The position numbers and the translations under genes are program-made. The notes under the pieces are model-generated. The model searched no databases. It was not told where the DNA came from and saw only the letters and a list, made by a program, of their open reading frames with translations. 64,000 bases of DNA from Candidatus Cloacimonadales bacterium (GTDB lineage Bacteria; Cloacimonadota; Cloacimonadia; Cloacimonadales; JAFGVF01), in assembly GCA_963677495.2 (NCBI GenBank), contig CAXXOU010000001.1:128001-192000 (forward strand), read 5' to 3'. This document shows positions 774 through 62,980 of this stretch, one piece after another (the first letter of the stretch is position 1; every line of letters starts with the position of its first letter).

Positions 774-1007
774 AGACTGTACCATTTTTAAATGCCAAAC
801 TGTACCAATTTAAAATGCCATTGACAGCCGGAGATGAACGAAGTAAAACGAAAGAGGACTTCCTCTATGAGTTGAACGTAAGTTGAACTCATAGTTGTGT
901 ACATTGCAAACTCGCTTAATCTTTTAACATCGGTTCCCTTTTCCCCTTTGGCGTCAATAGCTTCTCTTTATCTAATCCCTACAAGAATCTTTTTGCACCG
1001 TTAAATA

Positions 1008-1087
1008 AGTTATACACACGATGTGGATAACTTTAGGGGTTCATAGGGAGGGTCTAGGGAGACTAAAGGGAGGGACAAGCGAGATTC
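1008..1087 (+). repeat. Dispersed element copy A: inverted DnaA-box pair plus four 11-bp repeats
   Basis: TTATACACA-CGA-TGTGGATAA (1010-1030), then TAGGGAGGGTC/TAGGGAGACTA/AAGGGAGGGAC/AAGCGAGATTC (1044-1087). Aligns without gaps to the reverse complement of the 11.1-kb copy. Confidence 0.75.
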
Positions 1088-1305
1088 TAGGTTTTTGATG
1101 CAGCACGTACCAGACTCGTAGTGGACATGAAGAGAAAAAATAGAAGTCATAAATTATATTATTTAACTACAAAGCAGCTACAACATAACCTCAGAACTCG
1201 TGGTTTAGAACTAGGTAAGTCCGTTAACATAATTAATCTATTGACTGAATAAATGGTGAATATCTTATAGATAATAAATATTCATTCTTGCGATGAGGTA
1301 GATAG

Positions 1306-10848: not shown

Positions 10849-11013
10849 TATGAAGGTTTTAAAGACCAATCCACATTGTCAACGAAAACTTAAGCATCTC
10901 TTAATCAAAAATTGCATATTTCAACCCAAGTGGAACCGCATTATTGACCATTCTACACAAAACTCCGATCCCAATTTCTGACTCTGATTTAATCAAATAA
11001 TCCCGTTTTTGGT

Positions 11014-11175
11014 CCTGCTTCATCCCTTCCGGTTTCCTGACTAAAAAAGGTGTTTCAAAGGTCTCCCACAGGTGACCCTCTCGTGACCCTCTCGTGGAAA
11101 GCCTCAAGTTATTCACATCATGTGGATAACTACAAAACATATGGATTACTTTTCTTAGTCACGGAACCGGAAGGG
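11014..11175. repeat. Dispersed element copy B: 34-bp imperfect terminal inverted repeats enclosing 11-bp repeats and an inverted DnaA-box pair
   Basis: Inverted repeats 11024-11057 and 11142-11175. GTGACCCTCTC x2. TTATTCACA-TCA-TGTGGATAA at 11109-11129. Colinear with 59058-59211 (offset 48044). Confidence 0.85.
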
Positions 11176-11453
11176 AAGCATAGGGCACAAATCAATCACA
11201 AATTGCTTTTTGATTTGTTCATTCATTATAAATCTGCTAAATCCTGCTTAGAAAAGAGAAAAATATCGATGCAGACTTGCTAGTTGAGAGAGTACTGATG
11301 AACAATAAGTTAAGTATAGTAAAAGCACCTGTAATAATGAGTCAAACTCAGTGGTTACAAAAAAAAGTGATAATATAGTTTGACTTATTAAGGTATAATA
11401 GCATATTCTTGTGTTCGGTGTGAGGATGCTACTATAAATCCGGAGGAACAACA

Positions 11454-20876: not shown

Positions 20877-21305
20877 TCCTGATTATTGTTAATGTCTATA
20901 GTTTACTGTCAATCATTAATCCTCCTCCTTAAGAATACACTTTAGATTTTCCAAGGATTAACCCGTGGTCGGGAATCAGAGATCTGCCTATCATCAGCCC
21001 CTCATAATGCGGTACTAATAATTGTCTTCTTCTGCCTAGTTTCAAGACCTTCTCTTATGATTTTGCCCTAGGGAGCCCCAAGAGACTCACAGGAATCGGA
21101 CAATTTTCTCTGCTTTATTATGATAGAGCAATGAGAGGATAATTATATTGCACTCATTGTCTTGTGCCTGGTTACTATTGTTCCGGATTACTCGATTTGT
21201 GGACATAGTAGACGGGAGTGGACTTAGTGTTTGATTGCTCTCTCACAATAATAATCTAACATGTATTTCTTAGTCATTAGAAAGCAATCCCATACCCATT
21301 CGCTG

Positions 21306-21338
21306 TAACGGGGATCTAACGGGAAGCTAACGGGGATT
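21306..21338 (+). repeat. Three 11-bp tandem repeats
   Basis: TAACGGGGATC/TAACGGGAAGC/TAACGGGGATT. Confidence 0.8.
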
Positions 21339-21371
21339 CAATAGGTGTCTCATTGGAATTAAGGCAGAGCA

Positions 21372-44420: not shown

Positions 44421-44600
44421 GCCCTTCCTAGCTCCCCTCTACTCTTCCTCAATCTATAGGTTTCTCTCGGGTTAGTCTCCCGTTGCTGGCAACGAGTGGG
44501 AAACGGGAGAGAAATGAGAGAGAAACACTCGAAAAATGAGTGGTTGAAAGGAGCGTAGAAGGGAAGTAAAAAGGAAGCAGATTGGGAAAGATTAATGGGA
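44421..44600. repeat. Dyad-centred degenerate 11-bp-period array
   Basis: Pyrimidine-rich left arm, central CGTTGC-TG-GCAACG (44481-44494), purine-rich right arm AACGAGTGGGA/AACGGGAGAGA/AATGAGAGAGA/AACACTCGAAA/AATGAGTGGTT. Confidence 0.6.
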
Positions 44601-50720: not shown

Positions 50721-50830
50721 ACTCGGGAATGATCCGCGAATCAATGGGGATTATCTCGCGAATTTCTCGGGCAAAGTCCCGAGTGATTCCCGAGAGAGTC
50801 CCGGGAGATTCCCGAGTGTGTCCCGTGGAT
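50721..50830. repeat. Dyad-symmetric array of ten 11-bp units
   Basis: Five CTCGGG-type units (50721-50775) mirrored by five CCCGAG-type units (50776-50830) about 50774. Confidence 0.8.
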
Positions 50831-50867
50831 TGAAAGAGGGCAATAAGACGGACATGTTTGATTGCAT

Positions 50868-58593: not shown

Positions 58594-58989
58594 TAATTCC
58601 TCTTTTCCTTGGTTAACTTGGTTAGATATTGAAAGATAAGTATGTAATATAATGTGGAATTATGGCAAGCAAAATCTTATAATACTGTTCTCTTTATCTC
58701 CTTTACTAAAGTTTCAAAGCTTTGCTAATCACTTGTTATCAACAACAAGTACACTATTTTTGTCATAACATGTTTTGAAGTAACATACACTATGGAGTGC
58801 ACCAACTGTCTTAGTGCGTCATGTCACGAAATCTTAATTTACTTCAATCTGTACCTTCGGAATGGTCACAGACCTTCCGAATGGTACACTTCGAAGTTAT
58901 TTGTGTTATATCACAAGAGTACCATTTCGAATGTCTGTAACTATTCGGAAAGTGGAATCACGAAAGCTAAACCAATTTTGTATCGGATT

Positions 58990-59211
58990 TCCCCCAATCT
59001 TTCCATAATTTTTCCCTAATCTTTCCATAATTTTGCTCAAAATTTTGCTCAAATTTGCCTGCTTCTTCCCTTCCGGTTCCCGGACTAAGAAAGGTGTTTC
59101 AATGGTTACCCACAGGTGACCCTCTCGTGACCCTCTCGTGGAATGCCTCGATTTATCCACATCATGTGGATAAATTGAAAACATATGGAATACTTCTCAT
59201 AAGCACGGAAC
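58990..59211. repeat. Dispersed element copy C with upstream 11-bp-period tract
   Basis: TTCCMTAATYT-like units from 58990. 59058-59211 is colinear with 11014-11167. Perfect TTATCCACA-TCA-TGTGGATAA at 59153-59173. Confidence 0.85.
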
Positions 59212-59340
59212 TAGCACGGATCAAGTAGGCTCATGGAAAACTGGATATGATAGCAGAGATTGAACTGAGACGAGATGGCAGTAGATACTATCGAAATTAA
59301 TAGATTTAACAACAAAAATTGTCAAATTACGCATGAATAC

Positions 59341-60542: not shown

Positions 60543-60771
60543 AATGTAAAGCGACCACCCTTGGTCGCACTGAAATGGTACAGTTCACCGATCAAGGGTG
60601 ATCGGTTTACATTGTACTGTGACTCTCCTGAGTTGCTGTGACGACGAAGTCGGCAACTTCCACTGACCGAAACTGTCAATGGCAGTGAGAAATGGTACAC
60701 GATGGCAGTGAAAAGTGGTACAAAACTGCCAACCTTTAAAAATGACTACTTCAAGACAGTTTGGAGTAGGT

Positions 60772-62247
60772 ATGATTGGAGTAGAAGTGTATCATTCAAT
60801 AAAAACTATGCATAAGCAAGGGCATAGTCAGCGTAAGATCGCAGAGGAGTTGTCTCTATCAAAGACAACAGTAGGTAAATACATAAATATGACACTTGAT
60901 GAGTTCATGGAACTAATAAACAATAGCATTCGTGAAAGCAGTTTTGCCATATGTGAGCAATATGTCCGCGAAAGGCTTAGCAAATATCCACGATTAAGAG
61001 CTAGTGTACTATATTTAGAAGTTAAGAAAAAGTTCCCTGAGATAAAAGCAAAAGACAGAGCTTTCCGAGATTTTGTTCGTAAGCTAAAGCAGACTTATCC
61101 TGTCGATAAATACCGTAATTATGCAGTAATCGAGACGGCTCCCGGTGTTCAGGTTCAAGTTGATCCAGGTGAGATGAAAGTAGTTTTGGGTAATAAACGT
61201 CAAAGAGTTTATTTTATAGTTTTTGTGCTTTCCCACTCGCGTCAAAGCTATGTCCATTGGAGCACAACACCATATAACACATCAAGGTTTATTGAAGCTC
61301 ATCGTGAAGCTTTTATCTATTTTGAAGGTATCCCTTCAGAGTGTGTTTACGACCAGACAAAGCTTGTAGTAATACAGGAACGCTATCGGGAAGTAATCTT
61401 AAATAATCAGTTCCATCAGTTTGCAGCAAAAACGGGCTTTCATCCTCATGTATGCGAAGGCTATGATCCACAAAGCAAGGGTAAAGTAGAGCGTAATGTC
61501 TCAGAAGTAAAGCATGGCTTTATGTATGGCAAAGAGTTCAAAGACCTGGCAGACCTGCGTTCACGCGGACTTGAGTGGCTTTTACACTTTAACGGCAGAA
61601 CCCATGGCACAACCCGTAAAGTACCATCAGAAGTATGGCAAGAAGAGAGGTTAAAGCTAAAAGATATTCCAGAGTTTATCTTCACTTTAGAAGTTCGTAA
61701 TGCAGATAAAACAGGCTTAATCTCGTATGAGGGTAATAAGTACTCTGTTCCATTAGAGTATCAGCGAAAACAGGTATATGTGCAAAAAGAAAAGAGCACT
61801 TTAGTGGTGATGGATATTTATACAAGAAAGGAAATCTGCCAACATGAGCTATGCACAGAAAAAGGCAAAATCATCAAAAACACTAATCATTATCGGGATT
61901 TTACGGTAGTGCTACAAGAGCTTATTGAGCGAGTAAAGGATGAGATGAGTGAATATATCCAAGGAGAAGAACTAATCCAGAGGCTTGTTAATGATAACCC
62001 TAAAATAGCAAGGGATCAGTTGAGAGCCTTAAGCAAGTTTAAGCGTAACTATGAAACAGATGTATGGGAGTCAGTGCTTCCTGAGGTAATGACTCTTTCG
62101 CATGTAAAGGCAACAGCCATAGAGAAGCTTCTGAATGCAAAAGTAAGACAAATGAAGCTAAATGAATTATCAGAATCAGAACCACAACAAGACTCAGAGA
62201 GTTCATTAATAGAGCGCTCATTAGATGACTACATGAAGGTGTTATAA
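60772..62247 (+). CDS. istA: IS21 DDE transposase IstA
   Basis: N-terminal HTH (SQRKIAEELSLSKTTVGKY), ETAPGVQVQVD, VYDQ, PQSKGKVER, YSVP. Confidence 0.95.
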   Translation: MIGVEVYHSIKTMHKQGHSQRKIAEELSLSKTTVGKYINMTLDEFMELINNSIRESSFAICEQYVRERLSKYPRLRASVLYLEVKKKFPEIKAKDRAFRDFVRKLKQTYPVDKYRNYAVIETAPGVQVQVDPGEMKVVLGNKRQRVYFIVFVLSHSRQSYVHWSTTPYNTSRFIEAHREAFIYFEGIPSECVYDQTKLVVIQERYREVILNNQFHQFAAKTGFHPHVCEGYDPQSKGKVERNVSEVKHGFMYGKEFKDLADLRSRGLEWLLHFNGRTHGTTRKVPSEVWQEERLKLKDIPEFIFTLEVRNADKTGLISYEGNKYSVPLEYQRKQVYVQKEKSTLVVMDIYTRKEICQHELCTEKGKIIKNTNHYRDFTVVLQELIERVKDEMSEYIQGEELIQRLVNDNPKIARDQLRALSKFKRNYETDVWESVLPEVMTLSHVKATAIEKLLNAKVRQMKLNELSESEPQQDSESSLIERSLDDYMKVL

Positions 62248-62248
62248 G

Positions 62249-62980
62249 ATGATAGAGATAACTAAAACATACATCAAAAGGGCTCGTTGTACTCATATTT
62301 TGAATACTCTTGAAAGTGCAGTTTTAGAAGCAGAGAAACAGAATATGACTTATCTGGAGTTCGTACATTATCTATTTGAAAAAGAGAACTCAGGAAGGAA
62401 TCAAACCAATATCAACAGAAGACTTAAACAGGCTCACATCCCGGTAATAAAGACCTTTGATGAGTTCGACTATGCTTATCAACAAGTAATAACCAAAAGA
62501 CAAGTAAAGGAGTGGAAGAACTTTGTCTGGCTGGAGCAGAGGAGGAATATAATTTTAATGGGACCTCCGGGAGTAGGTAAGACTCATGTTGCAACAGCAC
62601 TCAGTTATGAAGCAATAAAGGCAGGCTATAAGGTGGTGTTTTATAATCTGAACAACCTTATCGAAGAACTTGTACTAGCTGAAGCAGATAACAACATAGA
62701 TAAATATCTAAGCAATATAGCCAAGAATGATCTGATAGTTATAGATGAGATGGGGTATCTTCCTCTCCAGACAAAGGCAGCTAATCTGTTCTTTAGACTC
62801 ATCCATCTCTTATACGAATTTAGATCAGTAATCATAACATCGAATAGGTTGTTTAATGAATGGGGAGCTATTTTTAACGACAATGTGATAGCAACTGCTA
62901 TTCTTGATAGATTACTCCATCACTCACAACCAATTACAATGCTCGGAGACAGCTTTAGACTAAGGAATTTTCAAAAATGA
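62249..62980 (+). CDS. istB: IS21 helper ATPase IstB
   Basis: GPPGVGKTH, IDEMGY, IITSN, AILDRLLH. Confidence 0.96.
   Translation: MIEITKTYIKRARCTHILNTLESAVLEAEKQNMTYLEFVHYLFEKENSGRNQTNINRRLKQAHIPVIKTFDEFDYAYQQVITKRQVKEWKNFVWLEQRRNIILMGPPGVGKTHVATALSYEAIKAGYKVVFYNLNNLIEELVLAEADNNIDKYLSNIAKNDLIVIDEMGYLPLQTKAANLFFRLIHLLYEFRSVIITSNRLFNEWGAIFNDNVIATAILDRLLHHSQPITMLGDSFRLRNFQK

Follow-up and report, generated by a model that had tools for sequence, protein, structure and literature searches.

The 64,000-nt stretch of DNA analyzed here (the window) carries housekeeping genes and two IS21 copies, together with three exact matches to the inverted motif TTATNCACA-N3-TGTGNATAA at positions 1010-1030, 11109-11129 and 59153-59173 (pattern scan of the window). 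Only 0.07 matches are expected by chance, and none of 100 shuffles reached three. The elements around these matches, copies A, B and C respectively, each lie between open reading frames (ORFs) and have 11-bp units at -14, -25, -36 and -47 from the array-side box, in one register for B, C and the inverted copy A. Copies B and C are identical at 135 of 154 bases in a gap-free alignment. A preliminary description of this DNA had claimed the threefold core, its intergenic placement, its constant distance from 11-bp repeats and the colinearity of B and C over about 154 bp, and it was accurate on each of these points. The window contains the following elements.

955..1115, minus strand: copy A, an F2 element with box pair 1010-1030 and array 1044-1087, ends approximate (lag-11 region; 36 F2 copies in the genome)
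11008..11191, plus strand: copy B, an F1 element with imperfect outer arms, 11-bp-period array and box pair (arm complementarity; 24 F1 copies in the genome)
11042..11108, plus strand: 11-bp-period array and linker of copy B, units at -47, -36, -25 and -14 from the box (lag-11 region; F1 mean identity to consensus 0.95)
11109..11129, no strand: inverted DnaA-box pair of copy B with a 3-bp spacer (exact match; F1 conservation 0.98/0.995)
21298..21350, no strand: box-less 11-bp-period element of another family, with 23 regions in the genome (lag-11 region)
44481..44537, no strand: box-less 11-bp-period element of a family that is rare here (2 regions) and common in the sister species G001 (lag-11 region)
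50765..50833, no strand: box-less 11-bp-period element of a type with 20 regions here; in G003 (L007) an array like it has a box pair (lag-11 region)
58982..59056, plus strand: decayed 11-bp-period run extending leftward from copy C (lag-11 region)
59053..59230, plus strand: copy C, an F1 element with box pair 59153-59173, ends approximate (pattern and alignment to B)

Copy A is inverted, as originally noted, but instead of being a decayed version of B it is typical of F2, a sister family. Copy B does have inverted arms; they are not the 34-bp terminal repeats first proposed but an imperfect pairing of 11008-11062 with 11137-11191 (55 nt, 71% complementary) that runs past the end given earlier. 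An arm search in copies A and C called no inverted pair like that of B. Rfam has no match in the window, and a promoter/terminator scan found nothing within copy B. The array of copy B (11042..11108) is predicted to offer docking sites for a cognate 150-aa protein, described below.

The IS21-family copies lie at 102-823 (an istB fragment) and 60715-62980 (istA-istB), and the genome has 18 near-identical istA copies. A further dispersed palindromic repeat of the CCTTCG/CGAATGGT type occupies 58800-58970, adjoining copy C on its left, and recurs near other elements.

Boxed families and the larger set of 11-bp repeats

The genome studied (G000; 3.41 Mb in four contigs, C1-C4) contains 58 exact inverted pairs, in each of which the spacer is 3 bp; pairs spaced by 0-2 or 4-12 bp are absent. 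When mismatches are allowed there are 77 boxed elements, which fall into families F1 (24, including B and C), F2 (36, including A), F3 (6) and F4 (11). Profile searches added one F4 element with a longer spacer, one decayed F2 element and the second half of a split copy. The F4 copy at C1:479418-479551, with a spacer 2 bp longer, is the sole spacing variant seen. All 77 elements lie outside ORFs of at least 100 aa, in gaps that are tandem (34), divergent (29) or convergent (14), and they occur in both orientations (16 minus and 13 plus along C1).

Exact pairs occur in 4 of 41 relatives, all of the same genus, in 58, 53, 2 and 1 copies, and in none of 198 genomes outside the genus (from a phylum-wide sample of 201). 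G002 and G003 have F1-like genes of the kind described below together with F1-like elements, and G001 has no F1 or F2 gene and a single exact pair. This lone pair was considered as a candidate oriC and rejected, as it belongs to an F3-type element. Among the 118 loci listed in a scan for exact pairs in other phyla, six had a lag-11 score of 19 of 33 or higher, and none was array-like by eye.

The boxed elements belong, as a single branch, to a set of about 280 repeats with an 11-bp period. There are 283 lag-11 regions in G000, versus 1-54 for the other lags from 7 to 15, and 70 of them lie at boxed elements; roughly three in four elements with this period are box-less. With the threshold set slightly lower, the lag-11 regions number 318 and group into 15 multi-member families and 35 singletons. 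Other periodicities in the genome include 54 regions of 7 bp, 44 of 9 bp and 40 of 12 bp, and the 7-bp runs often adjoin the 150-aa genes.

Resemblance of the inverted pairs to DnaA boxes

DnaA probably binds the boxed elements, because the boxes are their best-kept part, box changes concentrate at the free consensus position and break hairpin symmetry there, the same variants flank dnaA, and the DnaA protein keeps its signature. Conservation in F1 is 0.98/0.995 for the boxes, 0.95 for the array, 0.83 for the right flank and 0.43 for outer DNA; the corresponding F2 values are 1.0/0.97, 0.94, 0.77 and 0.40, so that the boxes are kept better than the flanks. Position 5, which is free in the consensus, accounts for 14 of 22 within-family box changes and for 7 of 14 distinct types (p = 3.5e-4), in a count that drops one IS-disrupted half-site and includes copies that are not independent. 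The search pattern left position 5 free, yet the profile search found few missed copies. Hairpin symmetry at this position is broken in 36 of 36 F2 and 11 of 11 F4 elements. The boxes agree with TTATNCACA, with position 5 free, and match the genome's own origin boxes; F4 has one deviant half-site. The DnaA of G000 retains DHTTVIHA, which we take, from comparison with E. coli DnaA, to be a DnaA signature. In Streptomyces, DnaA acts cooperatively on a head-to-head box pair with 3-bp spacing; a literature search for such a cooperative pair found no paper.

The single dnaA gene has six exact boxes around it, of the same variants, and GC skew flips sign there. The likely oriC is at C1:868034-869780 (L001, L008), with exact boxes on both sides of dnaA and dnaN not adjoining, and the sign change falls in the 50-kb bin of dnaA. 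The elements themselves were rejected as oriC, given their 77 dispersed copies and the separate six-box cluster. It had been remarked that no dnaA is nearby; there is indeed none in the window, but the gene is found about 680 kb from it on the contig that holds the window. The 11-bp units were also tried as degenerate, low-affinity DnaA boxes and rejected: F2 and F3 arrays are no closer to the box than random 46-mers, and near-boxes among the units are limited to the distal F1 unit and some F4 units.

The palindrome could instead be bound by a different dimeric protein, for which the cognate protein of this clade is a candidate, or could form a hairpin, with its likeness to DnaA boxes arising by chance. 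The box pair is the core of a 27-bp near-palindrome with a fixed spacer and a 5' AAG flank in 115 of 154 half-sites, it is confined to one protein clade (see below), and weakened half-sites are tolerated at position 4 in F4 and position 3 in the F3 element of G001, all of which would suit such a site. The variation at the free position of the DnaA consensus, the pairing that is broken there in F2 and F4, and the occurrence of the same variants and the same AAG flank beside dnaA make this explanation quite improbable.

The boxed elements hold 94 of the 154 (61%) perfect boxes TTATCCACA in the genome and 134 of the 322 TTATNCACA boxes. In line with the preliminary description, they could be read as a host-selected network that titrates or recycles DnaA in the manner of datA, DARS and box clusters, and a third near-box at -47, within one mismatch in 12 of 24 F1 copies, could be added in favor of this reading. 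Like DARS and datA, the elements have non-origin boxes with a pair in opposite orientation, irrespective of pair direction (PMC6868365, PMC5742627), and non-origin box clusters are described as repressing initiation in several phyla (PMC5742627). In the account of PMC6868365, DARS boxes I and II are opposed across a 5-bp spacer and accompanied by a box III, whereas the spacer here is 3 bp in 58 of 58 exact pairs and the third near-box is present in only half of F1. Unlike DARS, datA or the clusters, the elements exist in dozens of copies at non-conserved places in one genus and are tied to a repeat-gene system. With 1 to 58 exact copies among sister species, positions that differ between species, both orientations along C1 and most related elements box-less, it is improbable that dedicated replication control is the reason for their existence.

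A 150-aa paralog family is paired with the arrays

Clustering of the ORFs that flank lag-11 regions yielded a partner family whose members are about 150 aa long; G000 has 24 hits, 22 of them near full length. Seven paralogs form a separate clade II, where one of the seven has an array within 1 kb. The other 15 have a lag-11 array within 1 kb upstream in 13 cases and downstream in none, compared with 217 of 474 genes whose gap is 250 bp or longer (Fisher p = 0.0025). With the limit set at 600 bp the enrichment is weak (10/15 versus 191/474; p = 0.06) because arrays fill many gaps. The nearest arrays of the 13 loci represent 11 families, including rare ones (p = 0.0013; some assignments by eye). 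In G000, G001, G002 and G003 alike, the boxed units have the order array, box pair, 220-370 bp, start codon. The F1 gene of G000 is at C2:33661-34113 and its F3 gene at C4:692506-692958. The F2 gene is 1187 bp from its own element, and L147 has a reversed box element with another array nearer. No array occurs within 1 kb of L152, L164, L170 or six of the seven clade-II genes; no gene could be assigned to the 23-region family; and the CCCGAG family is present in G001 without a sister gene.

Array similarity tracks protein identity across species (rho 0.24, 227 pairs from 26 array-bearing loci, permutation p = 0.003), and in 8 of 14 cases the best protein match and the best array coincide. The co-variation also appears where the flanks map elsewhere (L167/L146, L185/L147). 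Cis linkage would account for it without recognition. In a quick tree of 44 rows, one clade of 14 rows (SH-aLRT 87) includes 11 with a box pair upstream, and the remaining 30 rows, among them one that lacks upstream DNA, include 0; the exceptions within the clade are L145, L180 and L185, which have no boxes. Repeat family and 150-aa paralog are thus very probably paired. The element just upstream of the paralog is the master copy, and most other copies are gene-less.

Between array and start codon many paralogs have a TATA-rich motif, ending in GAGG or similar, that is perhaps a promoter:

Upstream of L145, L147, L150, L151, L155-L157, L170, L178-L180 and L182: TATA-rich motif

The clade-II paralogs L158-L163 are followed by terminator-like hairpins and mostly have no arrays.

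The partner protein

The AlphaFold model of the partner protein (pLDDT 95.5) has a beta-hairpin followed by five helices, and residues 1-40 have a mean charge of +5. Only K2, G14, R33, Y72 and L109 are conserved at 90% or more, and the conserved residues include no HUH motif, no conserved His pair and no recognizable catalytic set. Foldseek found no match in PDB or BFVD at E<=0.001, and no solved relative was found. The best VIA score is Z 3.9 (rmsd 2.4, 49 aligned) for the whole model and Z 2.9 for residues 1-66; these weak rows are mostly ribbon-helix-helix DNA-binding proteins, and at such scores a ribbon-helix-helix or AP2-like fold is at most a candidate. Pfam and PHROGs gave no family beyond stray members (HMG-box in 2 of 142 only), and the gene matches no Rep or Par family. 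Atlas matches are limited to unnamed Cloacimonadota clusters, with a DUF6266 cluster at 0.82 as a lead; the taxa of these clusters are a basis for assigning G000 to the phylum Cloacimonadota. One paralog has a 66%-identical relative that its source labels Candidatus Zophobacter franzmannii.

Arrays in other Cloacimonadota and beside DUF6266 genes

Of 41 relatives, 28 have the partner family, for which 365 representatives were collected at E<=0.001. In G013 and G014, which belong to two other Cloacimonadota families of the same order, a gene-linked array has at least 41 matches in each own genome (40 candidates scored). These gene-bearing genomes have 9 and 6 lag-11 regions per 200 kb, respectively, versus 0 and 0 in 200-kb samples of G024 and G031, two gene-less genomes of one family. 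The divergent members are expanded in G021 (L290-L296) and G027 (L297-L301), with 20 and 25 hits and extended C-termini; upstream 11-bp arrays were not seen in seven G021 genes and are doubtful in five G027 genes.

Bacteroidota DUF6266 (PF19781) genes may have a related arrangement. A lag-11 array lies upstream in 13 of 25 and downstream in 0 of 25, in a set that omits second genes of tandem pairs, one gene without upstream DNA and one broken hit. As in the partner loci, the array is about 170-580 bp upstream and differs by paralog, and the protein has an N-terminal SGK...R..P segment. An N-terminal profile match between the two families scores 27.3 (at most 16.9 in 20 controls), in a weak alignment of the first 53-63 columns with a probability of 24-29%. 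The C-terminal parts are unalignable, unlike the N-terminal segment, and membership of the partner in PF19781 was rejected, with 0 hits in G000 over the Pfam cut-off.

Gain, loss and structure of the elements

Comparison with a G001 sample (1.2 of 3.1 Mb) finds synteny for 8 of 99 element-bearing gaps and, among gaps of 250 bp or more that have no element, for 38 of 145 (p = 4e-4, or p = 0.017 when stratified by gap length), where gaps counted as not syntenic include those with partners missing from the sample. In all eight syntenic gaps the G000 element, in one case an F2 box copy, is absent from G001 by eye. These empty orthologous sites show gain or loss of elements and, with the conservation values above, bear out the earlier view of a dispersed element, with the boxes as its best-kept part. 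No empty-site junction was found in contigs from four runs of one sample.

A unit of 822 bp, which begins at the left end of an F1 element and finishes 5 bp beyond the gene stop, exists in two copies that are 96.8% identical and have unrelated flanks. Their first 62 bp hold half of the mismatches (13 of 26), a pattern indicative of a junction within the core. Left and right arms are loosely coupled among copies (rho 0.24 and 0.15), and the arms are mosaic. A search for target duplications of at least 4 bp found no consistent one (best shared offset 8/24 in F1 and 2/36 in F2). With such ragged arms and no consistent duplication, the likeness to a classical MITE is not supported. The arms match no IS end in G000, so that the elements are not simply the end of a known IS there, and none of the IS of this genome supplies a transposase with the same terminal repeats. 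IS21 in particular was rejected as the source: its ends are of another kind, and one copy sits in an F2 box, where its insertion left a 7-bp duplication. The IS21 insertions are in an F2 box at C3:196532/198910 and in a box-less 11-bp element at C4:1304907.

The protein might only bind the arrays, as an operator-binding or nucleoid-organizing factor like a centromere-binding protein, with host recombination or Y1 or IS transposases spreading the repeats in trans. This is consistent with the lack of a catalytic motif, the ribbon-helix-helix rows, and the 14 Y1-family (PF01797) hits and multi-copy IS genes in the genome. Several families also fold as single-stranded hairpins (z down to -6.8), but in F2 the folding is barely stronger than in shuffled sequences (z +0.9 to -3.0). 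None of the Y1 hits is a partner gene, and Y1/RAYT was rejected as the partner after inspection of 7 of the 14 loci, each of which has its own, different repeats. The unmatched IS ends, the inconsistent target duplications and the abundance of arrays, which follows gene presence in five sampled genomes, also count against a binding-only role, and we consider it rather unlikely. Homologous recombination of the ordinary kind could, in turn, explain arm swaps and synteny breaks in the copying model preferred below.

Several Y1 genes (L012-L018) are flanked by their own REP-like palindrome clusters, which suggests that ordinary REP/RAYT systems coexist with the 11-bp system. A RAYT gene is directly downstream of the array-less paralog L152, and the same arrangement occurs in G001 (L164).

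Comparison with known systems

REP/REPIN repeats with their RAYT (Y1 HUH) genes, as far as PMC3116915 describes them, place a repeat family of its own next to each different gene, and most of these genes are single-copy. The 11-bp system is similar in its many gene-less intergenic copies, its family beside each distinct gene and its repeat-gene co-variation (PMC3116915); a family beside each gene together with dispersed gene-less copies was found here with exceptions. It differs in that the partner is not Y1/HUH (no Pfam hit, no HUH motif), the repeats are phased 11-bp arrays rather than short palindrome doublets on both sides of the gene, the master copy is upstream only, and one clade carries DnaA boxes. 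The system is therefore likely to have a REP/RAYT-like pairing with a different protein, which would bind and mobilize the repeats.

The BrickBuilt MITE of Porphyromonas gingivalis is likewise intergenic and lineage-specific, with tandem units inside imperfect inverted ends (PMC4596501). Unlike bacterial MITEs such as BrickBuilt, as PMC4596501 presents it, the present elements have no sharp ends, target duplication or IS with the same ends, and they form many parallel families with a partner gene each. A literature search, with subscription journals and bioRxiv supplements outside its coverage, found no description of an array/150-aa gene system.

Iteron plasmid origins and parC/ParR-type arrays have direct repeats at helical-turn spacing, with DnaA boxes adjoining and a gene that may be autoregulated. 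The elements resemble them in repeats one helical turn apart beside DnaA boxes, upstream of a possibly autoregulating gene, and are unlike them in that there is no Rep/Par match, most copies are gene-less and there is no plasmid context.

A model for binding and copying

Copies A, B and C are gene-less members of dispersed 11-bp-unit families, most of which have a paralog of their own as partner. The preferred reading is that the product of each paralog binds the array of its own family and brings about copying by way of the core, and that one clade also recruits DnaA; we hold this proposal in even balance. The basic N-terminal beta-hairpin domain would read the 11-bp unit, with one protomer per helical turn, and the upstream master copy could double as the operator of its gene. 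The protein-coated core might then be the site of strand exchange or copy-in, which is proposed to give rise to the gene-less copies, the arm swaps, the 822-bp element-plus-gene duplicate and the synteny breaks. If DnaA binds beside the array, it may help to open or replicate the core, and as a side effect the copies, with their majority share of perfect boxes, would soak up DnaA.

In its most far-reaching and tentative form, the model describes a new class of bacterial mobile DNA in which a 150-aa protein of unmatched fold coats and copies its own array without a known transposase, in Cloacimonadota and, via DUF6266, in Bacteroidota. One lineage would have captured a DnaA-box pair and would use the host initiator to open or replicate itself, holding most of the perfect boxes of the genome and reshuffling gene order.

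The partner family provides a candidate protein for a widespread, unexplained kind of intergenic repeat, with about a dozen protein-array pairs in one genome. These pairs form a natural specificity series, which makes the question of how such repeats spread directly testable. If the protein is the mobilizer, it would be a small recombinase of a new kind, whose specificity looks programmable. Repeats that hold most of the perfect DnaA boxes in one species, versus almost none in a sister species, also offer a natural test of initiator-titration models.
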